Both the position numbers and the translations under genes were made by a program. The notes below the pieces were generated by a model. It ran no database searches. It was not told the DNA's origin and saw only the letters and a program-made list of their open reading frames with translations. Of a stretch of DNA of 64,000 bases, positions 2,971-42,732 are shown one piece after another (the first letter of the stretch is position 1; each line of letters starts with the position of its first letter). The DNA is from Pseudomonadota bacterium (lineage in GTDB: Bacteria > Myxococcota_A > UBA9042 > GCA-2863065), in assembly GCA_005776585.1 (NCBI GenBank), contig SXOX01000143.1, positions 6,032-70,031 of the forward strand. The letters are read 5' to 3'.

Positions 2971-3044
2971 CCCGTCGCCGGAACGAGCGTGTCACCGGGC
3001 GGCTCGCGTTGCCGGTCTCGCTCCGACCGCCTATAACTGCGCCC

Positions 3045-11134: not shown

Positions 11135-12324
11135 AGGTGCCTCTTGAGCGTGACCGCCGCCGAGACGGGCACCTTGCCTTCCAGGATGTCGGTCACAGAC
11201 GTGTCTCCCAGGACGTGGGTTCGGGCGAAGGCCAGTGCGTAGGTCGAGATGATGCGGAAGCCCAGGGCGGCCTCGAACGTATCGCAACCGAAGCCGAACG
11301 TCTGGTGACAGGCGCCGGCGAGCTCGACCCAGGTCAGGTTGACGCCCTGGGTCGTGTCGAACTGCTTGTCCGCGCCCACGGGATCGGCCCCGCCGCTCAG
11401 CGCGAGCACCGGGACGGTGACCGACGTGTGGCCCGTCGGCCCGAACCAGTCGCGGCTGATGCTGCCGGCCATCGGGATCAGTGCCACGATGCGCGGGTCA
11501 CGGACGCCCTTGGCGAAGACGGCCTTCTCGGCCGGCGTACAGGTAGCGCACTGGGCAGAGTCGAACGTCGGCCCGCTCACGAAGGTCGCGCCGCCGCTCG
11601 CCCAGCAGGTGTGGACGCCGAAGCTGTGGCCGGAGAGCACCACGCGGTCGCTCCGGAGCGTGGCGCCACCGAGCCACGTCGCGGCTTGCGTGACGGTCGC
11701 GTCGAGCGCAGCCGAAACGTCCAGCGACCGCAGGTAGTAGAGCGCGGGCGGCCGCGGCTCGACGTTGTCCAGCAGCGTGTTGCCGGTGTGGTCCGGCGCG
11801 ATCGCCACCCAGCCGTGGGACGCGAAGGAGCGCATCAGGAACGCGCTGTTCCCCGCGAAGCCCATGTGTCCGTGCGAGTGGACGAGCACCGGATAGCCCG
11901 CGGCCTCTACCGGCGGTGACGGCGGGGCGTCGATGAGGCTCACCGTGTCCGGGAAGAAGTCGACGTACTGCGGGTGCTCGCCGGTCGTCGCCGTCGTGGG
12001 GTACCACACGTGGACCTTGAGGGTGCGCGCCGAGGTCTGACCTACCGGCGAGTAGGTCGTCGAGAACGTGCGATAGCCGACGCCGAACGGGCCCGCCTGG
12101 TCGACCGGCGACGCGAGCAGGGACGGTGGCGAGGCCTCCGCCGAGTCCATAGCCTTGGGAGACCCCGCGTCGGCGCCGGCATCGTTCCACGTGGAACCCG
12201 CGTCTAGTGTGTCGGCCTGGAGCGCCGTGCCGTCGTCGCGCGTCGGCGTGCTCTCGACAGCGCTGCCGCACCCGAGCGTCGCCCAGGTCACTGTTCCGAT
12301 GACTCGCGTCTGCCAACACTTCAT
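11131..12324 (-). CDS. alpha/beta-hydrolase lipoprotein (PAF-acetylhydrolase/dienelactone-hydrolase-like)
   Basis: Start trimmed to ATG 12324, giving MKCWQTRVIGTVTWATLGC (lipobox). Nucleophile elbow GHSFG has its Ser codon at 11624-11626. A HSHGH region lies upstream. Confidence 0.75.
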   Translation of the reverse strand: MKCWQTRVIGTVTWATLGCGSAVESTPTRDDGTALQADTLDAGSTWNDAGADAGSPKAMDSAEASPPSLLASPVDQAGPFGVGYRTFSTTYSPVGQTSARTLKVHVWYPTTATTGEHPQYVDFFPDTVSLIDAPPSPPVEAAGYPVLVHSHGHMGFAGNSAFLMRSFASHGWVAIAPDHTGNTLLDNVEPRPPALYYLRSLDVSAALDATVTQAATWLGGATLRSDRVVLSGHSFGVHTCWASGGATFVSGPTFDSAQCATCTPAEKAVFAKGVRDPRIVALIPMAGSISRDWFGPTGHTSVTVPVLALSGGADPVGADKQFDTTQGVNLTWVELAGACHQTFGFGCDTFEAALGFRIISTYALAFARTHVLGDTSVTDILEGKVPVSAAVTLKRHL

Positions 12325-18341: not shown

Positions 18342-19757
18342 TCACGCGGTCTTGAGCAAGGCCAACAGCGGATCTTCGCGCAGGTCGGCCGGATCGCCCT
18401 CGACGCCGAGGTCGTGAAACAGCGCGCGTAGCACGTGCTCCGGCCGCACGACGGCGCCGTCGGCCGCGAGCGCCCCGGTCTTGAGATTGACCGCCTGAGG
18501 GTTCATGCCCAGGTCCGACGAGGCGCCAATGACCTTGCCGCCCTGAATGGGACCGCCCGCGAGGAAGCAGCTGTTGCCAAGCCAGTGATCGCGGCCGCCG
18601 CGGTCGTTGACGAGCGGCGAGCGCGAGAACTCCGAAAAGCCGACGATGACGGTGTGGTCGAGCCAGCTCGTGCCCGTGCCGGCGTACTCGCTGGCGGCGA
18701 GGTCTTCGATGAGTCGCGCGACGGCGTTCATGCCAGCCATCTGGCGCGGGCCGTGATCGCTCTGCCAGTCATCGTAGTGCGTGTCCAGGCCACTCGTGGC
18801 CTCGATGCTCACCACGCGGCTGACGCCGTTCTTCAGCGCCTGCGAGGCCAAGGCGGCCTGCGCTCCGGGCGATGCGAGGGCGGCGGTGCCCGTGTCCGCG
18901 ATGCCGTAGTGCGAACGCAGCGACGACATGGCCTCCGTCTTGGCCTGGAAGTCGAAGAGCGCGTCGAGCTTGGCGGACATGACCTCGTCCAGCTTTTGCC
19001 GGGACACCTCAGCGGCTTGAAGCAGCGGCGAGGCCTGGGACTCGGGACAGGAGGCCGTCAGCGCGAGCAGCTGCTCGATCTGCGCCTCCGCGGTCGACGT
19101 TAACGGCGCCGCTCCCGGCTTGAGCGCGCGGACCAGGTCAGGGACGCTATTGACGCGCAGGCCGGTAGCGAAGTTGGGAAGCTCGGTGTTGTAGGACTCG
19201 ACGCGGCTCGAGAGGTTGGGGATGGGCTGCTCCTCGCCCAGCAGTGACGCCATCCACGTCGCGATCGAGGAGCCGCGCGCCAGCAGACCGCTCGGCGGCT
19301 TGCCGGTGAGGAAGCGGCGGCGCCCGACCTCATGGGTGAGCGTGTCCATGCTCATGCCACGCACGACGGCGAGCTTGTCGCCGTGCTTGGCCAGGTCGCC
19401 GACGTAGGGCCCGAGCACCATGCCGGGCGCGGCCTCCGTCAACAGATTGGTGACTGGGGACTTGAGCAGCTCGTAGGCCGGTTGGATCTTGGTGTCGTCG
19501 ACGGCGTCGGCGTTGAACACGTTGGGGTCGCGTGGGTCGAGTCCCAACAGGACGTCCCAGCCGCCGGAGAAGTAGCAGAAGACGTAGTACCGGTCGGTCG
19601 ACTTGGCACTCGCCCCCGGCGTGCCGGCTGCGCGCGCCAGCCGCTCGGCGCCGCGCAGGAGGGAGAGCCCGAGACCGGCGCCAAGGCTGCCCAAGAGGAG
19701 CTGCCGGCGGCTCAGCGTGCCGCGCACCGTCGAGGTCGTCATGTTTCGTTCACGCAT
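18342..19757 (-). CDS. DUF1501 family protein with Tat signal
   Basis: AGGAGG lies 6 nt upstream of ATG 19757. Tat motif SRRQLLLGSLGAGLGL. Also YVFCYFSGGWDVLLGLDP and the C-terminal signature FSEFSRSPLVNDRGGRDHW. Confidence 0.88.
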   Translation of the reverse strand: MRERNMTTSTVRGTLSRRQLLLGSLGAGLGLSLLRGAERLARAAGTPGASAKSTDRYYVFCYFSGGWDVLLGLDPRDPNVFNADAVDDTKIQPAYELLKSPVTNLLTEAAPGMVLGPYVGDLAKHGDKLAVVRGMSMDTLTHEVGRRRFLTGKPPSGLLARGSSIATWMASLLGEEQPIPNLSSRVESYNTELPNFATGLRVNSVPDLVRALKPGAAPLTSTAEAQIEQLLALTASCPESQASPLLQAAEVSRQKLDEVMSAKLDALFDFQAKTEAMSSLRSHYGIADTGTAALASPGAQAALASQALKNGVSRVVSIEATSGLDTHYDDWQSDHGPRQMAGMNAVARLIEDLAASEYAGTGTSWLDHTVIVGFSEFSRSPLVNDRGGRDHWLGNSCFLAGGPIQGGKVIGASSDLGMNPQAVNLKTGALAADGAVVRPEHVLRALFHDLGVEGDPADLREDPLLALLKTA

Positions 19758-19772
19758 ACCCGCCTCCTGAGC

Positions 19773-20498
19773 CTAGTACGTGGTGAAGTCCGGGTGAGTG
19801 ACGAGAGCGACACAGACCGCCGTCCATCCCGCGAGCGGCGACTGCGCCGTGTGCTCGACCGAGGCGTAGAGCCAGCGCCACGGCTCCAAGTGGGCGTCGT
19901 CGGTCACGGTGGCCGTCAGGCGCCGGCCGTGAAACCGCAACAGCAGAGCGCGGAGGTTGTCTTTGATCTTCTCCGGAGCCGACTTCCAGGTATCCGTTGG
20001 CGACGACGACGCGAAGAAGACCGGCGAGGCGCCGCCATCGGCCGCGGCGAGCTTTCCGCACACCGAGCGCGCTGCGTCTCCCAGGAACTTCATGAAGAGG
20101 GTCGAGGCCGTGAGGTCCTCCTGGGTGATCTCGACGAAGTCTGGCCTGCCCAGCGTCTTGCCGAGCTGCTGAAACAGGTTGACCTCGGCTTGCCCCTGCT
20201 TCTCCGTCCAGCCGATGCCACCCGTCACGCGCCGAATCGCGGCGTCGAGCTGATCGATGTTCATGCGCCTGCGCGGTCGTTGCAGCGGCTCGGCCACCGG
20301 TGACAGCGGCAACAGGGCGACCTCGCCCTCCGGATGAACCGCGACCTGGGCCGGCACCTGCACGGGTGCCGCCTCCGCCGGGGGCAGTCCAGGCTCGAGG
20401 TGGCCTGGCGTGCTGCTCGGCGCGACTGGCGTCTGAATCACGGCATCGCGCGCGCATCCGGCGACCAGAATGGGCAAAAGACAGGCGAGGTGTCTCAT
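19773..20498 (-). CDS. lipoprotein, function unknown
   Basis: Start trimmed to ATG 20498 (ATGA overlap with the upstream gene), giving MRHLACLLPILVAGC (lipobox). Sits between the CxxCH protein and the DUF1501 gene. Confidence 0.7.
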   Translation of the reverse strand: MRHLACLLPILVAGCARDAVIQTPVAPSSTPGHLEPGLPPAEAAPVQVPAQVAVHPEGEVALLPLSPVAEPLQRPRRRMNIDQLDAAIRRVTGGIGWTEKQGQAEVNLFQQLGKTLGRPDFVEITQEDLTASTLFMKFLGDAARSVCGKLAAADGGASPVFFASSSPTDTWKSAPEKIKDNLRALLLRFHGRRLTATVTDDAHLEPWRWLYASVEHTAQSPLAGWTAVCVALVTHPDFTTY

Positions 20499-22057
20499 CG
20501 AACCCTCCGGTACGTCGCGCTCGTCACGATGGCTTTGACCACGTCTCGGAACTCGAAGCCGCCCGAGACGAAGTCGTACGTCGTCTCCGCAAGCCAGCCC
20601 TCCTCTTCGGGCTGCACCGCACGACCGAGCAGCCACTCCGCGGCGTGGCGCGCGACGCAGGTGGGCAGGCGATCATCGACGATGGCGCGCATGGCCAGCA
20701 GCCGCGGGCCCTCCTCGACGTGCGCCACGTGCTCCGGGCGAAGGAAGTCGTAGGCCATGAGCCAGCCGCGGAACGGCAGCTCCTCGGGGGAGGTCGCCTT
20801 CGTGATGTAGAACGTCTTGCACTCCGCGCTGCACTGAAGCCCCGTCAGCGCACACGCCTCGCAGTCGGCGCGCTTCCCAGGGAACGCCGCGGGCGAGAGC
20901 CAGCCGATGCCGTTGGGTGTCCACCGACCCCAATAGCTGGCCGTGGGCTCCAGAAGCGCGTGGCAGTACTTGCAGCCGGAGCGCAGCTGCAGGTCCGGGT
21001 GGTTCGCCAGTTTGTCGCTCGAAAAGGGGATACCCCCCGGCGGAGGCTGAAACGGCTGACACAGAAAGGCGTTGTGAAAGCGGTTGGCCCGCGCCCGCTG
21101 CGTCTGAAAGCGGAGCAAGAACGCGGGGCTCGTGAGGATGCCCGCCTGCTCCGGGCCCAGATCGACGGCGATCCAGGTGTCCTTGTCCATGAAGGTGAGG
21201 TCCGGAAGCTTGGACTTGGGGACCGGGTTGGGCTCGTAGCGCAGGTTGGCGCCGACGTTCGTCTGCCAACGCAGGAAGTGGACGAGCGGGCCGTTGACAT
21301 AGGCCGTCTGGCTCGTGAACAGCTCCGTGTACGGGCGCTTGTCCCGGATGATGGCCGCGATGCGACGGTCGAGGTCACCTGCGATGGCCTCCAGCACGCG
21401 CGCGGTCGCATCGCCACCGCGGCACCAGCGCAACATGGGGCCGCATCCGCAGCCCTTGTCGGAGAATCCGCCCGTGGTGCCGCAGTCCGAGCCGTTTGGC
21501 GAGATGACGGCGTCTTGCGCATCGTAGCCGCAGACTTTGATCGGGAGGTCCGGTGCCCAATACGGCGCGACCTGAATCCACCCCTCGCGCGACGTTCCGT
21601 CCGGCTGCAGCTTGGACACGATGGCGCCGTCGGGCGTCGTCTCGAGCGGCTCGTCGAGACAGCCGAGCTCCCCTCCGCGATACAGCTTGGCCGTCTGCCG
21701 GCGCCAGTGGAGCTGCCCGGTCTTGGTCAGACCCGTGGTAGCCGCCAGCAGAGTGAGGTTTGCGACGTTGTTCCAGAGAAGCGCCTGGTGGTGCCGCAGA
21801 GCCTGTCCGACGAAGGCTTCGCTGTCGAGCCACTCGTCGACGAGAGCCCCCGGGATGCTCTCGGACGCGTCGAGCGCCGCGAACTCCTCGGGTGTCGGGA
21901 CGTCACCACGAAGGTCGAGGCTGAGCGCTCTCAAGAGGCGATATCGGTCGAGCTCTGGGGCCTCCGCCGCACAAACGGATGCGGGAGCCGAGACCTCAGC
22001 GGCGGCCGGGGCCGCGAGCAAGAGAGCCAGAAAGAGCGCAGAGCGCGGTTGGAGCAT
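20495..22057 (-). CDS. secreted CxxCH protein, DUF1549/DUF1588/DUF1585-like (partner of DUF1501)
   Basis: GGAGGG lies 8 nt upstream of ATG 22057. Signal peptide MLQPRSALFLALLLAAPAAAE. LRALSLDLRGDVPTPEEFAAL resembles the DUF1549 N-terminus, and TELFTSQTAYVNGPLVHFL resembles DUF1588. CKYCH at 20960-20974. The exact family is uncertain. Confidence 0.7.
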   Translation of the reverse strand: MLQPRSALFLALLLAAPAAAEVSAPASVCAAEAPELDRYRLLRALSLDLRGDVPTPEEFAALDASESIPGALVDEWLDSEAFVGQALRHHQALLWNNVANLTLLAATTGLTKTGQLHWRRQTAKLYRGGELGCLDEPLETTPDGAIVSKLQPDGTSREGWIQVAPYWAPDLPIKVCGYDAQDAVISPNGSDCGTTGGFSDKGCGCGPMLRWCRGGDATARVLEAIAGDLDRRIAAIIRDKRPYTELFTSQTAYVNGPLVHFLRWQTNVGANLRYEPNPVPKSKLPDLTFMDKDTWIAVDLGPEQAGILTSPAFLLRFQTQRARANRFHNAFLCQPFQPPPGGIPFSSDKLANHPDLQLRSGCKYCHALLEPTASYWGRWTPNGIGWLSPAAFPGKRADCEACALTGLQCSAECKTFYITKATSPEELPFRGWLMAYDFLRPEHVAHVEEGPRLLAMRAIVDDRLPTCVARHAAEWLLGRAVQPEEEGWLAETTYDFVSGGFEFRDVVKAIVTSATYRRVR

Positions 22058-22160: not shown

Positions 22161-22430
22161 CTACGGCGTCTTGAGTTTGGTCTCCCCCGTGGAGCACTTG
22201 CCACCGAGGAGGAGGGTAAACTCGGTGCGTCGGTTCTTCTCGTAGTCGATCTCATTGGGGTTGTCGGCCCGGTACACCGGCTTGCTGGCACCGAAGCCGC
22301 GACGCGTCAGCAGCTTGGCCTCGACGCCGAGTCGGACGAGTTCGGCCTTGACGACCTTGCCGCGGTTCTTGGACAGCGTGAGGTTCTTGAGGTCGTTGCC
22401 CTCCTCACTGGCGTGACCGTCGACGCCGAC
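22161..22430 (-). repeat. direct repeat copy 1 (3' end of the giant/OmpA ORF); copy 2 is at 39884-40154
   Basis: My manual alignment gives 15 substitutions plus one 1-nt indel over 270 nt. Homology starts exactly at the stop codon (cta). Confidence 0.9.
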
Positions 22431-23879
22431 CTCGATGACGAGCTTGTTCTCGAGGATCTTCTTGGCGACGACCTCGAGCGTCTTCTTGGCCTCGGCCGTC
22501 AGGTCCCACTTGCCCTTCGCAAAGATGACGTACTCGGGCAGCGTGCGGGCGCACTCCTTCTCGACCTCGATGATCTTCTCGACGTACTTCGTCGTGCTGC
22601 CACCATCGGGACAGCCCTGCTTCTCCGCAGGCCCGGGCAGGTTCGGGCACTTGTCGGCCGTGTCCTGGACGCCGTCGCCGTCGTTATCCAGTTCCGGACA
22701 CCCGTCGTCGTCCTGGTAGCCGTCCTTGTCCTCCCGCTCCGACGGGCACCGATCCAGCGCGTCCGCCACGCCGTCGCCATCCGCGTCGCCGTCGGGGCAG
22801 CCATCCTTGTCCTCGACGCCGTTCCAGTCCTCCGCCTGGTTGGGGCACTTGTCCTCCGCGTCCACGATCCCGTCTTTGTCGTTGTCCCACTCCGGGCAGC
22901 CGTCGTTGTCGGCAAAGCCGTCCTTGTCCTCGGGCGACAGCGGGCACTCATCCGCACGGTCCTCGATGCCGTCGCCGTCGCTGTCGTTGGTCCGGGGCGC
23001 CCACTGCAGCCCCGCCAAGAAGCGGAAGTTCGGGGCGCCGTAGCCCTGCACGAGCCCCGCGCCCACCGCGGCCTGGATGCTCAGTCCCGAGATGACCCAA
23101 AACTTGGGCCCAAACAGCACCTCGAGGTTGGTCGAGTCGAGCGACGAGAAGAAGTCCTTGGTCAGTGGCGTGCGACCAAAGATCTCGAGGTCGAGATGCA
23201 CCCGATCGATCCACGCGGCCACGTCGATGCCCAAGCCAAACGTCAGCTCGTGGCCAAACGTCGTGCCAAACAAGGTCGACTCCTTCGGCCGAAACCGGAA
23301 GCCCAGGTTCAGCGCCGTGACGGTCCGGTCCGTCCGATAGTCGAAAATGGTGTTCAGCAGCACACCCACCGTCGGGTCTCCCCGGAACTTGTCCTTGTTC
23401 CCCGTCGGCAGCGTCAGCCCAAACGACATTCCAATCCCGAAGCCGCCCGTCTGGTTGTTCAGCAGCTTCCCACGCACCCGAAACGTCATGTCGCCGAGGC
23501 CCGCTCCCGACACCGGCGCAATCGCCTTGACGTCGTCCGCCGACGTCATCTGGATCGCGACCGGCAGGCTCAGCTCGATCTGCGCCCAGTCCGCCAGGCC
23601 CACGCCCAAGCCGATATCGCAAAACGTCTGGCTCTCGACCAGGATCTCCTCGTGGTTGCCGGCCTTGAGAAACAACGGCTTGCGCTCGCCGTAAAACAGC
23701 ACCGACGCGTACGGCTGCCACTTCGGCCCCACCATCGACTCCTCCACCGACCAGATGCGGTACCGACCGCCCCCGGGCATGAAGTTCTCGATGTTGACCT
23801 CCGCCGTCGCCTGCGCCGACGCCCCCGTGGGCGCCATCATCGGCACCGCCAGCGCCGCCAGCACCAGCAGCGGGAGCAC
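22161..23879 (-). CDS. possible independent sub-ORF: OmpA-family outer-membrane protein (barrel-like domain + TSP3 repeats + OmpA-like C-terminus)
   Basis: In-frame GTG 23879 (alternatives GTG 23906, TTG 23900) gives (ARRRAR)VLPLLVLAALAVPMMAPTGASAQA|TAEV, a signal peptide with an AxA site. It is followed by ~270 aa of alternating beta-strand pattern ending FLAGLQWAP. Next come DGDGIEDRADECP-type TSP3 repeats. The OmpA-like C-terminus reads VGVDGHASEEGNDLKNLTLSKNRG...NRRTEF. There is no stop codon upstream, so separateness is unproven. Confidence 0.4.
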   Translation of the reverse strand: MLPLLVLAALAVPMMAPTGASAQATAEVNIENFMPGGGRYRIWSVEESMVGPKWQPYASVLFYGERKPLFLKAGNHEEILVESQTFCDIGLGVGLADWAQIELSLPVAIQMTSADDVKAIAPVSGAGLGDMTFRVRGKLLNNQTGGFGIGMSFGLTLPTGNKDKFRGDPTVGVLLNTIFDYRTDRTVTALNLGFRFRPKESTLFGTTFGHELTFGLGIDVAAWIDRVHLDLEIFGRTPLTKDFFSSLDSTNLEVLFGPKFWVISGLSIQAAVGAGLVQGYGAPNFRFLAGLQWAPRTNDSDGDGIEDRADECPLSPEDKDGFADNDGCPEWDNDKDGIVDAEDKCPNQAEDWNGVEDKDGCPDGDADGDGVADALDRCPSEREDKDGYQDDDGCPELDNDGDGVQDTADKCPNLPGPAEKQGCPDGGSTTKYVEKIIEVEKECARTLPEYVIFAKGKWDLTAEAKKTLEVVAKKILENKLVIEVGVDGHASEEGNDLKNLTLSKNRGKVVKAELVRLGVEAKLLTRRGFGASKPVYRADNPNEIDYEKNRRTEFTLLLGGKCSTGETKLKTP

Positions 23880-26800
23880 CCGTGCTCGCCGTCGCGCCAA
23901 GAGCACGAGACCCGCCAGCAGCAGCACCGCCAGCGCGCCGGTCCCCGCACCCGGCCGACCCGAGGCGTCGCACCGGAAGACGTTGTCGCCGATCACCTTC
24001 GCCACCGAATAGTCGTCGTCCTTCACCAGCGGCTTCGTTCCGTTGTCGACCTCGTCCTTGTCGTTGACGCCGCCGTCGTCGGAGTCACCATCCAGCGGGT
24101 CGCTGCCGTAGACCAAGAGCTCGAGCTTGTCATTGAGGCCGTCGTCGTCGGAGTCCGGATCCTTGTGGTCGGTCTTCGTCACCTTCCCGTTCGAGACGTT
24201 CTTGATGCCGAGCTTCTCGTCGTGGTCCGTCAGCCCATCGCCGTCGGTGTCAAACAGCCCGTCGGTCGGATCCAGCGGGTCCGACTCCGGCGGATCCCCC
24301 ACCTTGCCGTCCCCGTTCAGGTCCTCCTCGCCATCCTTCAGCTTGTCGGCGTCTGTGTCCGGGTTCAGCGGGTTGGTCTTCGTCGTCGGATCCGCGTCCG
24401 CCTTGAATTTCGTCGCGTCCGTGTCCTTCGTCGGCTGGTTCACCCCCAGCTCCGTCCCGTCCTGCACCCCGTCCTGGTCCGTGTCCCGCTCCTTCGGGTC
24501 CGTCTGGGTCGTGTTGACCTCCTTGCCGTCGGTCAGGCCGTCCTCGTCGGAGTCCTGATCCCGCGTGTTCGTGCCAATCACCTGCTCCTGCGCATCCGAC
24601 AAGCCGTCGTCGTCGTCGTCCTGGTCCGCGCAGTTCAGCGTCCCGTCCTGGTCGTAGTCCAGCAGCTCCGGCGCCGCCGGCGTCGACGCCTTGTTCAGCG
24701 AATCGGTGCCGCAGATCCCCTCCTCCTTGTCTGAGACCAGGTCGTTGTCGTCGTCCGGATCCTTGCAGTCGATGATCTGGTCCCCGTCCGTGTCCTCCAG
24801 TGACTCCAGGCTCGGCGTCGACGTCGACGACAGCGGGTCCGTCCCGCAGTAGACCTCCACGCCGTCTGAAACGCCGTCCTTGTCCGCGTCCGACTGGCTG
24901 CCGTCACAGTCGCCGTTCTGATCTTTGTCCTCGGACACCGACTTCGGGTCCAAGGGGTTCGTGTGGCAAAACAGCTCTTTCTTGTCGTTCTCCGTGTCGC
25001 CGTCGGTGTCCGCCTTCGTCGGGTACGTCTCGCCCGCGCTCACGTCCCCGTCCGGCTTTCCGTTGTGGTTCGCATCCTCGTCGCCATCCAACAGCCCGTC
25101 CCCGTCCGTGTCCGGGTTCGTCGGGTCCGTCTTCAAGCAGTTGTTCTGCGCGTCCACCCCGTAGCAGCTCGACGCCGCCACCTCGAGCCCGTCGCTCAGA
25201 CCGTCGCCATCGGTGTCCGTCTTCAGCGGCGACGTCTCCTTCGGCTGCGTCACCCCGTCGTGATCCGCATCCTCCGCCCCGTCCTTCAGCCCGTCCCCGT
25301 CCGTGTCCGGCTTGTTCTTCTCCGTCCCAATCGCCAGCTCCGCCAGGTCCGGCTCCGCGTCGTTGTCGTCGTCCAAGTCCACGCAGTTCAGCGTCAGGTC
25401 CCCGTCGGTGTCGGTCAGGTCGTCGATCGTCGGCTTCAGCGACCCGTCCAGCGGATCCGTCTTGCACGTCGTCTCCGTCACGTCCGGCGCGCCGTCCCCG
25501 TCGTCGTCGGTGTCCTGCGTGTTGCAGATCCCGTCCTTGTCCGTGTCCACCGGATGCGACGCCGCCGACAGTGGATCCGACCCGCACGCCGTCTCCTGAT
25601 CGTTCGGCCAGCCGTCCGCGTCCTGGTCCAGATCCTTCGGATCGCACAGCCCGTCCTTGTCCGTGTCCACCGGCACGCTCGCCGCGCTCTTGGGATCGGT
25701 GCCGCAGAAGGTCTCGTCCGACGTCTTCCACAGGTCCCCGTCCGGATCCGCGTCCGGGTCCACCACGTCACACACGCCGTCCCCATCGGTGTCCACCGGC
25801 TTGCTCAGCGCCGACTTCGGATCCGTCTTGCACAAGGCCTCCGTCGCGTTCAGCCACCCGTCGTTGTCCTCGTCGTTGTCCAGCGGATCGCACAGCTTGT
25901 CCCCGTCGGTGTCCGTCGGCAGCGACAGCGGGTCGTGCGCGTTCGTGCCGCACTTCTGCTCCGTGTCGTCGTCCCAGTTATCGCCGTCGTCGTCCGGGTC
26001 CACCTTGTCGCACAGCTGATCGGCGTCCGCGTCCTGCCCGTTGTCCTTCGGGTTGTCGGCCTTCTTCTTCGGGTCCGTCCCGCACGTCGTCTCCACCGCG
26101 TTCGCCCAGCCGTCGCCGTCCTCGTCCTGGTCCAGCAGGTCGCACACGCCGTTCTTGTCGGTATCCACCGGCACCGACGACGCATCCCGCGGATCCGTCT
26201 GGCACAAGAGCTCCTTCGCGTCCGTCCACTGATCGTTGTCGTCGTCGGGATCAATCACGTCGCACAGGTGATCTCCGTCCACGTCCAGGCCCGCCGTCCC
26301 CGGGTTGTCGCTGTTCACCGTCGGGTCCGTCCCACACACCTGCTCCACGTTGTTCGCCCACGTGTCCCCGTCCCGGTCGGCGTCCTCCACGTCGCAGATC
26401 CCGTCGGCGTCCTGGTCGTGCGCCGCGTCAATCGGCGTGGACGTCCCCAGCAGCGGGTCCGACCCGCAGCCAAGCTCAAACGTGTCCACGAAGCCGTCCG
26501 CGTCGTCGTCCAAATCCGACGCGTCGCACTGCGTGTCCCCGCCCGGCAACGCCCCGTCCGTGTTCTTCGGCACCGACGCCTGGTTCAGCGAGTTGCTGCC
26601 ACACACCAGCTCCTCGATGTCCGAGTGTCCGTCCGCGTCGTCATCGGTGTCCGAGCAGTTCGGGAGACCGTCGTTGTCCAGATCGTTGGCCAGCAGCGGA
26701 CCCGGCACCGACGCCTTCGACTCCGGATCCGTGTTGCACAGCAGCTCGAAGCCGTTGCTCACCCCGTCCTTGTCGAAGTCCTCCTTCGCGCAGATCCCGT

Positions 26801-29800
26801 CCGTCAGGCAGTCCGTGTCCAGGCAGTCAATCGCCGTGTCGCCGTCGTTGTCGTTGCCGTCACCGCACTGCTGCTCCTTGGCGCCGCACGAGGCCTCCGT
26901 CGTGTCGAACTGCTTGTTGCAGTCGGCGTCAATCCCCGCCAGCTTGCAGTTCTTCGCCGCCCCCGGCCGGATCTTGTCCGTGTTCTTCGCCTCCGGGTTC
27001 AGCGGACACTCCGTCGCCTCCGTCGCGTCCGAGGCCTGGTCGTCGTCGTCGTCCGGATCCACGCAGTTCAGCAGCAGATCGTTGTCCGGGTTGGCGACCT
27101 CGTCAGACGTCGGCACGTCCAGCACCGACTTCGGATCGTGGCCGCACAGGATCTCCACCCCGTTCTTGATGCCGTCCTGGTCGAAGTCCGCGTTCGCGCA
27201 CGCCGCCACCAGCACGCAGTCGTCGTCGGCGCAGTCCACCAGACCGTCGGCGTCCTCGTCCTTGCCGCCCGTGCACTGCTCGCCGCACACCACCGTTACG
27301 TCCGCCGCCGGAGAGCCGGAGCCCCCGCACGCCGCCACCTCGTCGACCACCAGCGTGTAGGTCGAGCCCGCGTTCACCGACAGCGATCCCTGCCCGCCGT
27401 CTGCGCACGTCGAGGACACCGCCAGCGCCGAGCCCGCGCACGTCAGGTCCGCGCACCCGTTGACGAAGACGTTGACCGAGTACTGCTTCGTCCCCGCGTT
27501 CTTCACCCGGAAGGTCACCGTCTCCGTCGTCGTCGCCGACAGCTTCAGCACCCCGTCCGCCCCCGACCCGCACGGAAACGCGTTGTCGAACGGCACCAGG
27601 CTCTTCGTCTCGCCGCACGCCACCGGCAAGGCCGACGCGCACGTCTCGCCCGCGCACTCCGGAGACGCCGTACACGCTGCGTCCACGCAGTCCACTTGGC
27701 CGTCGCAGTCGTTGTCGAAGCTGTCGTTGCACGCGTCCGCCGCCGACGTCTCCGTGCCGCCGGGGTTGATGGCCTTGCGCGTGTCGTCGCAGTCCGTCCC
27801 CGTCTTCGGGCACACCGCGTTCGCCGCCCCGCCCGGCACCCCGTATCCGTCGCCGTCGCCGTCCAGGCACGGATCCTTGCAGTCGTCCAGATTGTCCTTG
27901 TCTAGGTCGATCTTGCAGTTGGTCGTGCACGTCGCCACCGCGGCGTCGCAGTCCTGCTCGTTGCACACCTTGTCGCCGTCTCCGTCCGGCAGGCCCTGGT
28001 CGATGGTTCCATCGCAGTCGTCGTCCTGGCCGTCGCAGACCAGCTCCCCGCAGCTCGTCGCCGCGCCCGGCGTCCCGAGATGCGTCTTCGACGTCGAGTA
28101 CGTCGCCGTCCCTGCCGACAAGCACCACACGCTCGCGTCGTCGTTCGACGCGTTCGTCTGCGTCGTCGCGCTCTGGAGCTCAATCGACCGCGACTTGTTC
28201 GTATCCGCCGCATGCCCCAGCTCGCAGGCGTACCCCGTGAAGTCCAGCAGGTCGAGCACCGCGCTCGTCCCATCCAGCAGCTGGAGCTGGTCGCCCACCT
28301 GCGACAGCTGGAATTGCCCGTCGCAGAACGCGTCTGCCGGCAGGCCGTCCGACCCATTTTGGGGGCCCAGCGCGATGACGTAGAAGCCCTTCGCCGCGAC
28401 CTCGCCCTTCTTGCCCAGAGCGACCGCGCAGTCGCTCGCAAACGTCTGCACCTGGCCCTGCTGATTCTTCAGCTTCAGACCCAGGCTCCCGAGGTCGATC
28501 TTCGCGTTCGACCGGTTGTACAGCTCAATCCACTGCTCGCCCGGCAGGCCCGACAGCTTCTTGATGTGCACCTCCGTAATCGCCAGGGCGCCCGCCTCCG
28601 TCTGGCACGTCGCCGAGCAGCCGTCACCCGACGTCGTGTTCCCGTCGTCACACGTCTCGCCCGCCGTGATCTTGGTGTCGCTGCACACCGAGCACGCCAG
28701 CTCCTGCGGATCGTCCAAGCCGTTGCAGTCGTTGTCGCCTGGCACCGCGCACTGCTCCGCCTGATCCGGGTGCGTCGTCGCCCCGCTGGCGAGCGGGTTG
28801 TCGTTGCAGTCCGCCTTCGACTGCGGGCACGCCGACAGATCGCCGTTGTACGGCAGCGTCGCGTCGCCATAGCCGTCCGCGTCCGCGTCGATGCAGTGAT
28901 CGCACGCGTTGCTCCCCGACAGCTCCGGCTTCTTGTCGTCGTCCCTGTCCGACTGCAGCGTCACCTCTGAGATAAACAAGCCCGGGTTGTCATTGTTGTT
29001 GTTGTCCAGCGTGTCGTAGAACAACACGACGTCCACCGATTGTCCCGCCTTCTCCGGCGGCAGCGGCACCGACACCGTGTCGAAGAGGCCAGACGCCGTC
29101 TTCTTCCCCGACTCGAAGATCACGTACTTCTTATCGCCCGCCGCCTTGCACTGCGTCTTCGGCGTCTGCGGATCCAGGCACACGCCAAAGATGTCCTTGC
29201 TGGTCGACGCCTCGCCTCGGTTCGCGTACCGAATCAGCAGCGACGGGAACGGCATCCCCGCCGGGATCGTCAACGTACGCGCCAAAAACGCCTTCACCGA
29301 CGTCTGCCCGCCCGTCTGCACCGACGACACGTTCCCGTTCAGGACCGTCTCCCAGCCCTTGTCCCCTGCGTTCAGCGTGCTCGCCCCGTACTGAAACACC
29401 CGCGTCGCCGCGTTGTTGTCCGGATCGTTGTCGTCGGGAATCAGGCCCGCGTCGCCCGTCGTAAACGTAAACGTCTTCGCACACACCGCGCACGCCGCGT
29501 CATTGGTGCAGCTCGCGTCCAGGCAGTCGATCTTCGTGTCCCCGTTGTCGTCCTTCCCGTTCGCGCAGTCCTCGGTCCCGCAGTCGCTGTCGTTGCCGTT
29601 CAGGAAGCCGTCGCAGTCGTCGTCGTCGGGCGTGTTGCACACCTCCGTCTTCCCGGGGTTGATCGCCGCGACGACGTCATTGCAGTCCGGCTTGCCGAAG
29701 TTCGGGCACTGGCTCGGACCCGGCGTCCCGTTCGCCATCCGCGGGCTCGCCGCGTCCGAGTAGCCGTCCTTGTCCCCGTCCCAGCACGGATCGCACTGCG

Positions 29801-32800
29801 TCGAGGCCCCCTCCTGCAGCGCGTCCCCGTCGACGTCCGACGCCACCACGATCCGGTCGATCGCCAAGCCCGGCGTCAGCACCAGGTTCGGCACCACCGT
29901 GTCGAAGAACACCGTCACCGTCACCGATTGGCCCAGGTGCGCCTTCAGGTCGATCACCAGGTGGTCCTGCGTCCCATCGGTATAACTGGGCTGCGGCAGC
30001 GCGTTGTTCGGCGTCTTGTTGCCCACCACGACCGCCGCCGCGTTGTCCTTGTCGCACGCGCCGCCCGGCGCCACGTTGAAGCAGACGCCCATCACGTCGA
30101 ACGCCGGGTTCGGGTTGCCCTGCAGCTTGTAGACCACCTCGAGCCGGGGCGCGGGGCCGCCCGTCACTGCGTTCGGCACCGCGAAGGTGCGCGTCAGGTG
30201 CGCGATCTTCCGCGTCGCGTCCACCCCCAGGCCCGTCGCGCCACCCGTCTTCCACACGCCGTTCGACAGCGGCAGACCCTGCGTCGGCGCGCCCGGCAGA
30301 TACGCCATCGGACCGGTCGGCACAAAACCCTGGCCCGCGCCCGAGTCGAACGTGAAGTCGATGCTGCACGGCGAGCAGAACGGATCCCCCGTGCACGCCA
30401 CGTCCGCGCAGTCCGTCAGCCCATTGCTGCCGTTGTCCAGACCGTCGGTGCAGTCCTCACCGCACTGCGCGTCCAGCAGGTCCGTCTTCGTGTTGCAGTT
30501 GTCGTCGACGTTGTTGCTGCAGAGCTCGATCTTGGTCGGGAAGATCTGGTCGTTGCCATCCACGCAGTCCTCCGCCGCGCCGCCCGTGCATTGCGCCGGT
30601 GTCGCCGAGCCCGCCGCACCAAAGCCGTCCTGGTCCACGTCGATGCACGGGTCACATCCCGCCTGCGCCCCAAACTCGCCCTTGCTGTCCCCGTCCACGT
30701 CCGACCGCACGTCGATCCGGCCGACGAACGCCCCCTCGAACGCCGTCGCGCCCGCGCCGCCCGCCGACGTGAAGCGCACCACCGCCGTCGGCGAGGTGCC
30801 GCCCAGGCTCGCCACGTCCACCGTCAGGGTCGTCAGCGCCGTCGCGTTGGCGCACGTGTGCGCGTTCGGCGCCCCCGCCGTGCTCCCCGTCGGGTTCACG
30901 AACACGTCCAGGCACTGGTTGGTGCCGTCGCCCTGGAGCTTGTAGGACACGACCAGCTGCGTCTTCGGGATCGCTGCAGACGTCGCCGGAATCGCAATCT
31001 GTCGCCGAATCGTCGTGTCCACCGCCGTCGCCGGCAGCTTCGGCGCGCCGAGCCCCGTCTCGAAGCCCGTGCCGCCGCCAAACGCCGAGGCCCCGTGCGC
31101 GAACGCCCCCGCGCCGCTCCCGCTCCCCGTGATCGTCCAGTCCTGCACGCCCGTCGCGAAGTTGAACACCGACCCGCACGAGGCCACGCACACCGTCGGG
31201 TTGTTGCCCGTGCACGTGAAGCCCGCCTCGATCGCGCACGCCTGCGAGCAGCCGTCCCCGTTGTCCGCCGCCGCGCAGCCGTTGTTGCCGCACCCGTCGT
31301 CGCAGGCCTCGTTCGACGCCTTCTTCCCGTCGCCACACAATGAGGTGCACACGTTCGGGGTGTTCGTGTTGCACGCAAACCCAAATTCGATCGCCGTGCA
31401 GTTCGCGGCGCACCCGTCGACCGCCGTCGTGTTCCCGTCGTCACACGCCTCGCCGTCCGACACGTTCCGCTCGCCGTCGCCGCACGCCTTCACCTTCACG
31501 GTCACGGTCGCCGTCGCCGTCGCGTTCGCCTTGTCCGTCACCGTGTAGGTAAACGTCGTCGTTCCCGCGAAGCTGCCCGAACGCGTAAACGTCACCCCCA
31601 GCTTGTCCCCATTGATGGTCACCGTGCCCCCGGAGGCTGGCTGCGTCACCGACTTCACCGTCAGCACGTCCGGCGTCGTGTCCGCCGTGTCCACGTCCGT
31701 GTCGTTGGCCAGCACCGGGATCGACACCGGCGTGCTCTCGTAGGTCTGCGCTGCGTCGTCGACCGCCACCGGCAGGTCGTTGGCCACCGCCAGGTTCACC
31801 GTGACCGTCGCCGACGACGTCACGTTCGCGCTGTCCTTCAGCGTGTACTGGAAGCTGCCGGAGCCGTTGAAGTTCAGCTGCGGCTTGAAGGTGATCGTCG
31901 TCCCCGAGAGCGAGACCGTCCCCTTGTTCGCGCCCTGCACCGACGTCACCGTCAGCACGTCCGGCACCGTGTCTGCCTTGTCCGGATCAAGATCGTTGGA
32001 CAGGAGCGTGGCCGCCGTGATCGTCACGTCCACGTCCTCGGTGCCGTTCACCGAGTCCGCCACCGCCGTCGGCGCGTCGTTGCTCGCTGAGACCGTGACC
32101 GTCACCGTCGCCGCCGTCGACGTCTTCGGCGCCGACACGCCGTCGGTCGTCCCATTGTCCGTCACCGTGTAGGTAAACGTGTCCGTCCCGTTGAAGTGCG
32201 CCTTCGGCGTGTACGTCACGTTGCCGCCCGAGAGCGCGACCGTGCCACCCTGCGCCGTCGCACCGCCCACCAGCGCCACCGTCAGCGTCTGCGCCGACTC
32301 GTTCGCGGGGCCCTTGCTGTCGTTCGACGTCAGGTCCGACGCCGCAAACGTCAGCGGCGTGTCCTCGCCCGTCGACTTGCTGTCCGCGCTCGCCGAGGGC
32401 GTGTCGTTGACCTCTGTTACCGTGAGAGTCACCGTCTTCGTCGCCGTCTGCGCCGCGCCGCCCGTGTTCCCCTGGTCGTCGATGTCGACTTTGAGCGTGG
32501 CCGCGCCGTTGAAGTCGGCCGTCGGCTTGTACGACAGCGTCGCCAGCGCGTTGTTGGCCGCCGTCACCGTTGCCGTGAACGTCATCGGCGCGTCGTCGGT
32601 ACCATCCGACCCGCCCGAGAACGTCAGCCCCGTCAGCTGCGTGACCGTCACCGTGCCGTTCGTCGGCGTCAGCGTCACCTTCACCGCGCCGCTGGCCGCG
32701 TCCACGTCCGCGACGGAGACCACGTTCCCCGTCCCCGTGAACGTCAGGACCGCGTCCTCGGCGACCGACCGGGTCGCCGGTGCGGCGATCGTCGGCGCAT

Positions 32801-35800
32801 CGTTGACCGCCGTAATCGTAAACGTCACCGTCTTGCTATCGGTCTTGGCGCCGCCCGAGCCCGCGCTGCCCTGGTCCGTCACATCGACGACCACCTTCGC
32901 GGTCGCGCCCGTGAAGTTTGCCGTCGGGCTGAAGCTCAACGTCGCCAGCGCCGCGTTCACGTTGGTCAGCGTGCCCGTGAACGCCATCGCGGGGTCGCTG
33001 TTGCCGTCCCCCGCCGAGAACGACAGGCCCGTCACGCTGCTCAGGTTCACCGTGCCGTCCGTCGCCGTCAGCGTCACCTTCACCGACGCCGCGTCCTCGT
33101 CTGCGACCGACACCACGAGCCCCGCGCCCGTGAACGCGAACGTGCCGTCTTCGGTCACCGTCTGCGCCCCCGGCGCCGTAATCGCCGGCGGATCGTTGAC
33201 CGCGTTCACCTGCAGCGGCACGTTCGCCGTCACCTGCTTCGCCCCGCCCGTGCCCGTCTGGCCCCCGTCGCTCACCGTCACGACCAGCGTGTCTCCGCCG
33301 TCGTAGTTGCCGTCCGGGTCGTACTTCAGGCCGTCCAGCGCCGTCGTCGTCGCCGCCGGCGTGCCCGAGAACGTCATCGTCGCGTTCTTCGTGCCGTCGC
33401 CGGTCGTAAACGTCAGGCCCGTCGTGCCCGACAGCGAGAGCTTGCCGTGGGTCACCGTCAGCGTCGTCGTGACGGTCGTTGCGTCCACGTCCGACACCGC
33501 GATCGCGTTGCTGTTGCCCGCGTTGAACGTCAGCACCGCGTGCTCCGCCACCGCCTGCGTCGCCACCGGGGCGGTGACCGACGGCGCGTCGTTGACCGCC
33601 GTCACTATGAGCCCGATGTCCGCCGTAAAGGACTTCTCCCCGCCCGAGCCCGTGTTGCCCCCGTCCATGAGCTTGACCTTCAGGGTCTCGTTCGACGTCG
33701 CGTTCAGCGCCGTCGTAAACGTCGCGTTCCCGGCCGTCAGATAGGTGTTCAGGTCGGTCAGCGTGCCCGACAGTGTGAGCACGCCCGTGCCGGAGCCCGA
33801 CGCCGTCACGCCGCCGCTGCTCGACCCCGTGACGGTGCCCGACGCCACCGTCAGCGTCGCCGTCATCGTGCCCGTGCCCACGTCCAGATCGCTGAACGTC
33901 AGGCCGGACAGCGACTTCGCGACGTCCTCGGTGACCGCAAACGAGCCCCCCGGCGCGGAGACCGTCGGACCGTCGTTGACCGCGCTGACGGTGATGCTGC
34001 GCGCCAGCGTGTGCGACTTGGCTCCCCCGGAACCGGTCGCGCCCTGGTCGTCGGCCTTGACTGAGATCGACGCTGTGCCATTGAACTGTGCCGTCGGCTT
34101 GAAAACCAGGCCATCCAGCGCGGCGTTCACGTCATCCAGCGTCCCCGTGAACGTCATCGCCGCGTCCGAATCGCCGTCGCCCGCCGTAAACGTCAGGCTC
34201 GTCGTCGTCGCCAGCGTCGCCGTGCCGTCGCTGACCGTCACCGTCATCTGGAACTCCGAGGTCCCCACGTCCACATCCGACACCGCGAACGCGTTGGCCC
34301 CCGACAGCGTCAGCGCCGTGTCCTCGGTCGTCGACGGCGCCACCGGGCCCGACATCACCGGCGCGTCGTTCACCGCCGCCACCGTCAGCGCGATCGTGTG
34401 CGTCGCGTTCACCGTCCCCGCGAACGCCGCGTCATCCACCTCGATGGTCACCGCCGCCGCGCCGTTGTACTGCGCGTTCCCCAGGAAGCTCAGCGTCGCC
34501 AGCGCCGCATTCAGGTTGGCGACCGTGCCCGTGAACGTCGCCCCGCCGCTCGAGGTGAACCCGCCCGCGTCCAGCGTCAGGCCCGTCGTCGTCGTGATCG
34601 TGAACGTCCCGTTCGACGTGCTCAGCGTGACCGACAGCGTCGCCGGGTCCGGATCCGTGATCGACACCTGGTTGCTGCCCGTGAACGCGATGCTCTCGTC
34701 CTCGTTGGGTGCCGCCGTCGCCGGTGCGGTGATGGTCGGGAGGGTGTTTGGCGCGACGCACGAGCCCCCAGACAGCGTATTGCCCCCAGAGCAGCTGAGG
34801 CAGTTGTTGGAGCTCGGACCGTTGCAGGTTGCACAGCTGCCGTCGCACGCCCCGCAGAGGCGGTTCGTCGAGGGCGTGCACGCGATGACCTCGTACTGAG
34901 ACGCCGTGCAGGCCGGGCTACACGCTTGGCAGGTTGCGCCGAAGAAGCCGGTCGCGCAGGTGCACGCGCTGCCGGGCGTCGGGCAGGTAAAGCCGGCCTC
35001 GACGACACACACGCTCGAACAGCCATCGCCGGCTGTGGTGTTTCCGTCGTCACAGCCCTCGCCAGCGTCGAGCGCGCTGTTGCCGCAGGTGTCGGGCGCA
35101 AACGTCTTCGCGAAAATCTCCGAGGCCGTGCCATTGCCGCCAGACCAGGCAACCAGGTACTTCCCGCTCGTGGTCCCAAAGACGGCGGACTGCAGCACGG
35201 CCGTCTTCTGCGTGTCTCCAGCAGCCGGTTGGAAGCTGATGCGGAAGTCCGTTCCGAACTCGTTGCCGACCGAGGGGCCTTCACCCACGAGCTCCTGGCC
35301 GAAGATCTCGATCTCGTCTTGAATCGCGCCATCGATGTCGTCGTCGCCGGTCCACGTGACGAGGAAGCGCTTGTGCGCGTGGTTGTAGGTGACGAACGGA
35401 TTGCCGGCGCCAAACCCGACGTTGCCGTCGGGCCCCGCGTCACTCAAGCGGAGGTCGGCTGCGCCCTGGACGGTCCCGACGGCCGCGACGAGCCGGCCAA
35501 ACACCTCGATCTCAGTCGTATTGGTTGCACCCAGGTTAGCCGAAAATGCGATGAGGTACCTATTTGCGGCCTCACTCCACGCGACGTGGCTTTGTCCCGC
35601 GCCAATCCGCTCGGCGATCTTGAAGTCCGTGCCCAGCTCCGCACCTGTGGATGCGTGGAGCCGCTGGCCGAGGATCTGGCGGCTATTCGGCGGGTTCGCC
35701 GTATTCTGGGTGTTGCTCCACACGACGAGGTACTCGCCCGCCGTCGCGTTGTAGGCGATCGCCGGAAAGTTGCAGTTGACGTTCGCTGAGGACGCGTCCA

Positions 35801-36422: not shown

Positions 36423-36428
36423 CCCTCC
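36423..36428 (-). promoter_or_regulatory. Shine-Dalgarno of the giant gene
   Basis: The minus strand reads GGAGGG TGAGTT ATG. Confidence 0.6.
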
Positions 36429-38746: not shown

Positions 38747-39247
38747 TCATGATTGCGTGGGAAAGATACCAAAGAGGGCGATGATGAACGAGATGCACTG
38801 GTACGGCTGCATGTTCTCATGCGGCTGTGTGCCGTAGACCCCCGCCTTGAAGGAGGCGGGCAACATGGCTCGGGTCGTCCCTTCGCCATAGGCGGGGAGC
38901 GACGCCGTCGTGAGGAGCCGACCCGTGGGATCGGTCGAGGCGGTGCCGGGTGCGGCCGTATTCAACGCGTGGCTGTGAGCCGGCAGCTGGCTCGCGATCA
39001 GCGTGACCGTCTCCGAGCCGCCCGACTCCCCGATGATGAAGCCGTTTCCCTGATGCAGGGGCACACGGCCGCGCAGATCGGGCAGCGCGAAGGTGCTCTG
39101 GCCATCGCCGCCATAGGTCGTACCGATGAGAGCGAACAAGGTCTCGCTCTCCGCGATGCTCTGAAGCGAGCCATCGCAGAAGGCCCAGCCGACCGGAGCG
39201 AAGTTCCCGCCGAACATGCGAATCTCGCCAACGTACGGTTCTGCCAT
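38747..39247 (-). CDS. phage-tail-collar domain (MdpB-like) protein, paralogue 2
   Basis: AAGGA lies upstream. MAEPYVGEIRMFGGNFAPVGWAFCDGSLQSIAESETLFALIGTTYGGDGQSTFALPDLRGRVP, then PAHSHAL, and C-terminal IALFGIFPTQS. Confidence 0.88.
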   Translation of the reverse strand: MAEPYVGEIRMFGGNFAPVGWAFCDGSLQSIAESETLFALIGTTYGGDGQSTFALPDLRGRVPLHQGNGFIIGESGGSETVTLIASQLPAHSHALNTAAPGTASTDPTGRLLTTASLPAYGEGTTRAMLPASFKAGVYGTQPHENMQPYQCISFIIALFGIFPTQS

Positions 39248-39295: not shown

Positions 39296-39808
39296 TCAAT
39301 TCTGAGACGGGAAGATCCCCTGGAGCGCGATGCAGTAGTTTATGGTCAAGAACGGCTGTTGATTCGAGTGCGGCTGACCGCCACCGCTCGAGTTGCCGAG
39401 GGTGCCTGCCGCGAGCGGCGACGTGAGGGCGCCGGTTCCGTAGACGGGCGCAGACGATGCCGCGAGGATCGCGCCGCGCGGTGTGCCGGTGAAGCCCGCC
39501 GCGCTGGTGACCGCGATGCCGCCACCGCCCAACGTGTGGCCTGGCATGTGGTTCGCTGCGAGCGTCACGTTCGTTTCGCCGAGCTGCATGCCGATAGGAA
39601 TGTCGTTGCTCTTGTGGAGCGGCACGCGACCCCGAAGATCCGGCAACCCGAACGTCGTCTGGCCATTCCCCCCGAAGTTCGTCCCAAGGAGCGCAAACAG
39701 GGCCTGGTTCTGGTTGATCGCGAGTAGCTGGCCGTTGCACTGGGCCCACCCCTTCGGTGGAAAGCCGAAGCTGAAGGGTCTGATTTCGCCAATGAACGGC
39801 TCTGTCAT
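39296..39808 (-). CDS. phage-tail-collar domain (MdpB-like) protein, paralogue 3
   Basis: Start trimmed to ATG 39808 with AGGAGGAG upstream. MTEPFIGEIRPFSFGFPPKGWAQCNGQLLAINQNQALFALLGTNFGGNGQTTFGLPDLRGRVP. The HSH motif is replaced by PGHTL. C-terminal IALQGIFPSQN. Confidence 0.88.
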   Translation of the reverse strand: MTEPFIGEIRPFSFGFPPKGWAQCNGQLLAINQNQALFALLGTNFGGNGQTTFGLPDLRGRVPLHKSNDIPIGMQLGETNVTLAANHMPGHTLGGGGIAVTSAAGFTGTPRGAILAASSAPVYGTGALTSPLAAGTLGNSSGGGQPHSNQQPFLTINYCIALQGIFPSQN

Positions 39809-39883
39809 GCTGCTCCTCCTGTGCCCGGTGTCCGCCGCGCGACTCCGGGACACTACGTACCATTGGTGCCCCCAGTCAAGTTC

Positions 39884-42714: not shown

Positions 42715-42732
42715 AGCCCTGGAGGAGTGCTC

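Follow-up and report, generated by a model that had tools for sequence, protein, structure and literature searches.

We analyzed a 64,000-nucleotide stretch of DNA (hereafter the window; contig SXOX01000143.1 of assembly GCA_005776585.1, from a Pseudomonadota bacterium that GTDB places in the Myxococcota_A), in which a single open reading frame (ORF) of 4751 codons and a stop occupies 22161-36416 on the minus strand. This ORF probably encodes a secretory polyprotein (we put the probability near 0.7), which on comparison with related sequences would correspond to a TraA/TraB-type gene pair fused into one gene, with a surface adhesin joined to a barrel/OmpA outer-membrane partner. The two parts meet where a sorting signal of the MYXO-CTERM class is followed directly, in the same frame, by a second export signal. 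A previous reading of this DNA, made from the letters by themselves (the sequence-only reading), had pointed to the junction and had considered three explanations: two genes joined by an error or by loss of a stop codon, a genuine polyprotein, and expression of the downstream part from an internal start codon.

A sorting signal and a second export signal adjoin within one ORF

Translation of the window bears out the stop-free succession of Cys/Gly motif, helix, RRRAR and second helix that the sequence-only reading had placed at 23808-23990, which corresponds to aa 4143-4203. Residues 4149-4179 (nt 23972-23880) read CDASGRPGAGTG-ALAVLLLAGLVLLA-RRRAR; V4180 (GTG 23879) comes next, then LPLLVLAALAVPMMAPTGASAQATAEV, and no stop codon intervenes. 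The chain continues without a stop past RRRAR as VLPLLVLAALAVPMMAPTGASAQATAEV, and the 572 in-frame residues that follow RRRAR mean that the sorting signal is not at the extreme C-terminus. Only three segments in the 4751 residues are strongly hydrophobic (Kyte-Doolittle(15) ≥1.9), namely the N-terminal signal peptide and the two helices of the junction.

The first half of the junction has the tripartite layout of a sorting signal. The Cys/Gly signature CDASGRPGAGTG (aa 4149-4160, 23937-23972, minus strand, as are all parts of this ORF) matches TIGR03382 and contains an invariant Cys column; it is the proposed site of lipidation and of myxosortase cleavage. Helix 1, ALAVLLLAGLVLLA (aa 4161-4174, 23895-23936), which is both a hydropathy peak and a helix in the AlphaFold2 model (aa 4159-4175), is the transmembrane helix of the signal and a proposed stop-transfer sequence. 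The RRRAR cluster (aa 4175-4179, 23880-23894) closes the signal on what would be the cytoplasmic side, and from the translation and the conservation of the loop it would also be the n-region of the signal peptide that follows. C4149 lies in a Gly-rich context and is followed by a helix and an Arg cluster, on a protein that has an N-terminal signal peptide, and its column is invariant in both of our junction alignments (A4 and A5). Tested as an isolated 88-aa segment, the junction scores 19.7 bits with TIGR03382 (GC_trans_RRR), above the cut-off of 15.85.

The second half is arranged as a Sec type I signal peptide, with RRRAR as n-region, helix 2, VLPLLVLAALAVPMMA, as h-region (aa 4180-4195, 23832-23879; a hydropathy peak, and an AlphaFold2 helix at aa 4181-4194), and PTGASA as c-region (aa 4196-4201, 23814-23831), with small residues at -3 and -1. 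Of 125 fused representatives of the family (described below), 109 have an AxA motif in the c-region that follows helix 2, compared to 13.8% of random windows from the same proteins, and the residue that most often follows it, at P1′, is Q. Moreover, A-x-A|Q is conserved across 13 aligned fused loci. We therefore place the signal peptidase I cut of the window protein at ASA|Q, after A4201 and between nt 23814 and 23813. The sequence-only reading had recognized an AxA site after helix 2, but had set the cut two residues further downstream, at AQA|T. Judged by this conservation, an intact signal peptide lies inside the ORF at helix 2, and cleavage is predicted at its conserved motif.

Upstream of the junction, the ORF begins with an ATG at 36416 that is preceded, 7 nt to its 5′ side, by a GGAGG Shine-Dalgarno motif (36424-36428) read from the sequence. 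The N-terminal Sec signal peptide, MKRTSFVFTVVLACLGGASLASA|N, comprises aa 1-23 (36348-36416) by translation and accounts for the first of the three hydrophobic peaks. Between it and the Cys/Gly signature lies a giant extracellular adhesin-like region (aa 24-4148, 23973-36347) in which Pfam and NCBIfam models identify cysteine-rich acidic repeats, cadherin-like/tandem-95 repeats, a lamin-tail domain, MopE-like motifs and many TSP3 calcium-binding repeats.

The downstream part is a TraB-like outer-membrane protein

The last ~548-550 residues form a complete outer-membrane protein, as the sequence-only reading had claimed, composed of a barrel, TSP3 repeats and an OmpA domain; this architecture, which is that of TraB, is supported by AlphaFold2, Foldseek and Pfam alike. 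The best NCBIfam match of the C-terminal part is TraB (NF033763), with 189 bits over the barrel and 176 bits when the whole protein is used. Since these scores are far under the cut-off of 700 bits, we consider this part of the window protein a TraB-like paralogue rather than TraB itself.

In the AlphaFold2 model of aa 4140-4751 (mean predicted local distance difference test score, pLDDT, 83), both helices of the junction precede a disordered c-region, after which come a 12-strand barrel, the TSP3 repeats and an OmpA-like domain. The barrel (aa ~4210-4472, 23001-23789), which is also the part matched by TraB, is confidently folded from about aa 4210, ~8 residues past the predicted cut site, with block-mean pLDDT mostly >90; its nearest structures by Foldseek are FapF (5o65) and the COG4313 channel (4rl8), with target TM-scores of 0.65-0.71. 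The TSP3-type calcium-binding repeats that separate the barrel from the OmpA domain (aa 4473-4602, 22611-23000) are marked by invariant D/C/G columns in two alignments (A1 and A3) and by a match to 5wtl. The OmpA-like peptidoglycan-binding domain (aa 4618-4737, 22206-22565) matches Pfam PF00691 over aa 4632-4722, with 47.1 bits against a cut-off of 27.2, and resembles Pal and OmpA C-terminal domains in Foldseek; for the TSP3/OmpA module as a whole, the nearest structures are Capnocytophaga OmpA and Pal-type domains.

The fused junction is conserved and widespread

To look for the junction in related genomes, we scanned species-representative genomes and obtained 16 loci, all from Myxococcota or ‘Deltaproteobacteria’ metagenome-assembled genomes (MAGs), which were extended upstream in frame. 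The same in-frame junction is present at 10 of these 16 loci. Seven are complete, stop-bounded ORFs of the same layout, 1351-3867 aa in length (L012, L013, L014, L015, L017, L018 and L019); three others (L009, L010 and L016) have the same layout, but their ORFs are interrupted by contig ends. The junction is found in these independent MAGs at 41-52% identity. A search with the junction and the downstream part also found three relatives on short contigs with the same in-frame junction (P0003, P0004 and P0089). Two apparent stand-alone close relatives, P0001 and P0002, both begin at a contig edge and are thus uninformative about fusion. The aligned junctions share a common pattern: DDF..GDNVFGC, a Gly-rich stretch, helix 1, an Arg loop of 2-6 residues, helix 2, A-x-A|Q and NVNIxNF.

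The window protein is collinear with four of the complete ORFs (L013, L014, L015 and L018), with 47-50% identity over the last ~3100 residues (aa ~1645-4743), straight across the junction to the end of the OmpA domain, while the N-terminal heads of these proteins differ. This suggests that exchangeable adhesin heads are carried on a conserved stalk-and-anchor module. The head of the window protein (aa 1-1640, 36416-31500, minus strand), which includes the cadherin-like/tandem-95 run, is without counterpart in the otherwise collinear L013-L018.

An exhaustive search of 1.84 billion cluster representatives with a junction profile (alignment A5) gave 2518 matches at E ≤1e-3, and 426 clusters passed the stricter limit of E ≤1e-10. 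Among the best 147 representatives, at least 125 are proteins (of up to 6313 aa) that carry the Cys, helix 1, an R/K-rich loop and helix 2 internally, and in these 125 fused representatives the median length of the loop is 6 aa. A profile search with a 150-aa junction alignment (A4) returned one 114-aa match only; we suspect that words from hydrophobic stretches and from the low-complexity TSP3 repeats overwhelmed its pre-filter. Among the fused clusters is one that contains ATB49739.1, encoded in the finished Corallococcus macrosporus DSM 14697 genome (CP022203.1), where the gene lies between ftsA and ftsZ. Based on these comparisons, the layout is widespread, not rare, and its in-frame recurrence in 10 loci and at least 125 representatives is far beyond chance.

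Two of the related contigs have additional features. On contig SXOO01000280.1, two giant fused genes (L017 and L012, encoding 3078 and 2716 aa) lie in tandem, and at their boundary (L017 ~11810-11860) the stop of the first gene overlaps the ATG of the second (ATGA), with a GGAGG a few bases to the 5′ side. On the P0004 contig (L001), genes for the type VI secretion proteins TssK (VasE) and TssL (DotU) are found at 4090-6239, ~900 bp 3′ of the fused adhesin/TraB-like gene and separated from it by one unannotated ORF; such linkage was not seen in the window.

Distant relatives encode the same two parts as separate genes

In the more distant loci L021, L022 and L023, the two parts are separate genes, such that a TSP3 adhesin ends with C...hydrophobic...RRRxRR and a stop, and is followed by a barrel/OmpA gene with its own Met and its own signal peptide; in L023, a single in-frame stop lies between them. 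The comparison of orthologous loci that the sequence-only reading had proposed came out on the side of a real fusion: 10 of the 16 related loci are stop-free at the junction, and stop-separated genes belong to more distant relatives. In a neighbor-joining tree of the barrels, which was not bootstrapped and was used only to suggest repeated fusion, the fused relatives of the window protein form one clade while P0076 and P0089 are placed elsewhere, which suggests from tree topology that the fusion arose more than once. The fused and split forms are evolutionarily interchangeable, from which we infer the same two mature products for the fused form.

Two further arrangements were observed among the relatives. 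A stand-alone, barrel-only relative of ~400 aa (L020, PKDL01000012.1, 1509-2729; also P0135), which carries a signal peptide of its own and whose ORF lacks a TSP3/OmpA module, falls inside the fused clade of the neighbor-joining tree, and may be a secondary split or a partial duplication. In a distant fused lineage, represented by JGI metagenome contigs with P0076 (L004-L007), one frame holds the sorting signal, the signal peptide and the barrel, and another holds the TSP3 adhesin (ORF from L005:1246), with a 1-nt change of frame inside CAAGCCCGCCCGACCC, just 5′ of the sorting signal (L005 ~2950-3000). The tested stretch is identical in the contigs of all four samples; the change of frame may reflect a systematic indel error, decay to a pseudogene or a genuine frameshift.

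A model for processing, and its alternatives

We propose that the chain is processed as follows. The N-terminal signal peptide would direct the chain through Sec, and ~4100 adhesin residues would enter the periplasm, until helix 1 halts transfer and lodges in the inner membrane, leaving RRRAR to face the cytoplasm. Helix 2 would then insert in the opposite orientation and act as an internal signal peptide, so that the last 550 residues are exported in turn. Signal peptidase I would cut after ASA (aa 4201), freeing the TraB-like protein to be inserted in the outer membrane by the β-barrel assembly machinery (BAM) and to bind peptidoglycan through its OmpA domain. On the other side, Cys 4149 would be lipidated and the myxosortase (MrtX) would cut just after it. 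A hairpin peptide of ~52 residues would remain in the inner membrane, presumably to be degraded, and the products would be a lipid-anchored adhesin and a TraB-like anchor, made 1:1 by virtue of the fusion. Double cleavage is favored by the combination of a conserved signal-peptidase motif, an invariant Cys and a barrel that is folded close to the cut site. As a further speculation, the FapF-like barrel may be a dedicated docking or export site for the adhesin of the same chain.

Several points weigh against this model. The polyprotein is the best supported of the three explanations considered by the sequence-only reading, but what supports processing, in the window protein and in all fused members, is wholly comparative. 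The MYXO-CTERM family is defined as C-terminal, and the signal in the window is internal. Moreover, the identification of this signal holds with TIGR03382 but not with the MYXO-CTERM model TIGR03901, which gives the isolated 88-aa segment 14.5 bits (cut-off 20) and gives the homologous junctions 10-25.6 bits, such that 3 of 10 reach the cut-off. No gene for a myxosortase (CPBP protease) or for type II secretion was found among the ORFs scanned in the 64 kb of the window. Finally, the in-frame GTG and TTG codons of the window could give a workable signal peptide, and some internal initiation may take place in this gene.

Internal initiation is the basis of the first alternative, which we consider unlikely: the long ORF would give the adhesin, with its tail discarded, and the TraB-like protein would come mainly or additionally from a start at GTG 23906, TTG 23900 or GTG 23879, with a signal peptide of its own. 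The three codons are indeed in frame where the sequence-only reading had placed them (V4171, L4173 and V4180), and a start at V4171 would make a textbook n-h-c signal peptide. Furthermore, the partner gene has its own start in the split relatives, and traA and traB overlap. However, GTG and TTG codons are expected by chance in Val/Leu-rich helices of a genome with 67% GC, and there is no Shine-Dalgarno-like motif within 17 nt of any of the three candidates, while true starts, both at the ATG of the giant ORF and at the L017/L012 boundary, carry GGAGG. Nor is such a start kept throughout the relatives: in L019, the 48 codons that precede the cleavage site include no ATG, GTG or TTG, L017 has none 5′ of the h-region, and Shine-Dalgarno-like motifs are found at candidates in only 2 of 13 loci, L016 and L017 (in the latter, before a GTG inside the h-region). 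Across the loci compared, neither an internal start codon nor a Shine-Dalgarno motif is conserved at the junction, and internal initiation as a conserved feature of this family is not supported by these loci. It would also leave unexplained the absence of a stop codon in more than 100 lineages.

It is more doubtful still that the chain remains uncleaved, with the two helices as a permanent inner-membrane hairpin that ties the adhesin to the OmpA-type module and releases neither. The hairpin is conserved in the single-chain homologues, and the cleavage of fused members is predicted, not demonstrated, both of which are consistent with this arrangement. Nevertheless, the invariant Cys and the A-x-A that flank the hairpin are both conserved, and a plain hairpin has need of neither. 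If the model of the barrel is correct, the two could not reside in different membranes, helix 2 in the inner and the barrel in the outer, as long as the chain is uncut, since the barrel is folded from only ~8 residues past the cut site that follows helix 2. In addition, the same two modules occur as separate genes with a stop between them, and the published fused member, MXAN_5598 of Myxococcus xanthus, was found in outer-membrane vesicles (PMC4158809).

An artefact or pseudogene, in which an assembly or sequencing error, or a stop codon lost very recently and in this genome alone, would have run two ordinary neighboring genes together, can be rejected. In its favor, the window belongs to a metagenome assembly made from short reads (ENA ERZ27257034, k141 contig), and the P0076 lineage (L004-L007) has its 1-nt frame change just 5′ of the sorting signal. 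Against it, the in-frame junction recurs in 10 independent loci of several MAGs at 41-52% identity, 7 of them complete ORFs, in at least 125 cluster representatives and in the finished Corallococcus genome, and GC content at third codon positions (GC3) is 0.92 across the ORF.

We lean slightly toward a broader form of the processing model, in which the comparisons would define a large and hardly studied class of bacterial secretory polyproteins whose two-helix inner-membrane hairpin is cut on both periplasmic sides, by a CPBP-family myxosortase and by signal peptidase I, and which deliver adhesin and anchor at a fixed 1:1 ratio. C-terminal sorting signals would then serve as internal punctuation, coupled directly to a signal peptide. 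If double cleavage takes place, these proteins would be a clear instance of polyprotein logic in the biogenesis of the bacterial envelope, with a built-in adhesin:anchor stoichiometry. Annotation pipelines label such proteins ‘OmpA family’ or ‘Ig-like domain-containing’, and their predicted two-product nature is overlooked.

Genes around the giant ORF

About 2.3 kb 5′ of the giant gene are two adjacent small ORFs (38747-39247 and 39296-39853, both on the minus strand), each of which has a phage tail collar domain (PF07484, 99 bits). Further along, 42727-47391 on the plus strand encodes a bacterial alpha-2-macroglobulin of 1554 aa with MG2, bait region, TED and MG10 domains. Just 3′ of the giant gene are two sets of Planctomycete-type DUF1552/DUF1592/DUF1588 and DUF1501/DUF1549-like genes (8199-11287 and 18342-22057, minus strand), which flank a gene for a Wzy-like O-antigen ligase and a carbamoyltransferase gene.

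Comparison with known systems

The closest solved folds to the barrel, the 12-strand barrels of FapF and of the COG4313 channel (5o65 and 4rl8), have 12-16% identity to it and are without a TSP3/OmpA module, so that the likeness is one of fold only. A precedent for the second half of the junction is the FbcH cytochrome b/c1 precursor of Bradyrhizobium japonicum, a bacterial membrane polyprotein with an internal signal peptide that sets export going again and whose cleavage releases the protein downstream of it. FbcH differs in that it belongs to a respiratory complex and has neither a C-terminal-type sorting signal nor an outer-membrane product. Our literature searches on AgmC with Myxococcus, on FbcH and on bacterial polyproteins with internal signal peptides gave nothing useful. 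For the first half, LPXTG proteins and an ArtA substrate of Haloferax volcanii have been cited as precedents for internal sorting signals (PMC11980579). The latter, HVO_0405, has a tripartite signal in mid-protein that is still processed by a sortase-class enzyme (Abdul Halim et al. 2017, as cited in the same paper); as far as that citation describes it, HVO_0405 differs from the window protein in being archaeal, in using PGF-CTERM and an archaeosortase, and in being a Tat substrate.

The window protein has the parts of TraA and TraB, namely an adhesin with a signal peptide and a MYXO-CTERM-type signal, and a partner with a signal peptide, a barrel, TSP3 repeats and an OmpA domain. TraA and TraB are two translationally coupled ORFs, whereas the window has one; in M. 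xanthus, traA (with the MYXO-CTERM) and traB overlap by 4 bases (PMC3325183), and the two proteins form 1:1 complexes (PMC12045341). Unlike in TraA, no PA14 or variable-domain head was found in the window protein, and there was no sign of outer-membrane exchange.

The closest known case is MXAN_5598. The sequence-only reading knew of no described polyprotein of this kind, which is now out of date, since Guo, Haft and Wall (mBio 2025, PMC11980579), who reported that the myxosortase MrtX cleaves MYXO-CTERM at the conserved Cys and who co-expressed MrtX with TraA in Escherichia coli, describe in their Discussion MXAN_5598 ‘in an atypical configuration’, where a MYXO-CTERM inside the protein separates a large adhesin from a barrel/OmpA region. 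They suggested that it is perhaps a gene fusion resembling TraA plus TraB, proposed that the N-terminal part is processed, and called such ORFs rare. NCBI names the Corallococcus and Myxococcus members of our family ‘adventurous gliding motility protein AgmC’. Because the Corallococcus gene lies between ftsA and ftsZ, the context reported for MXAN_5598, we infer from this synteny that MXAN_5598 is the AgmC orthologue; the context of the AgmC cluster was read from P0271, a cluster mate of the Corallococcus AgmC P0158. P0158 matches the junction profile from end to end, with the Cys, helix 1, an R-rich loop, helix 2 and AVA|Q.

Like MXAN_5598, the window protein unites in one ORF a large adhesin at its N-terminus, an internal motif of MYXO-CTERM type, an outer-membrane barrel and an OmpA domain, but it is not AgmC. 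The AgmC N-terminal domain (NF047640) scores 398.8 bits in P0158 (cut-off 275) and has no match in the window protein at E ≤1e-5, the window gene is not between ftsA and ftsZ, and the junction loop is 5 aa in the window protein compared to ~13 in AgmC. The window protein is thus a different member of the MXAN_5598-type architecture. In the published account of MXAN_5598, neither the second helix nor a signal-peptidase site inside the ORF is mentioned; what our comparisons would add to it is the signal-peptide nature of that helix, the wide spread of the layout, the alternation of split and fused forms among relatives, and internal starts that are not conserved. A tractable member of the family is available in M. 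xanthus, in MXAN_5598 (the inferred AgmC), and mrtX mutants exist in that species.

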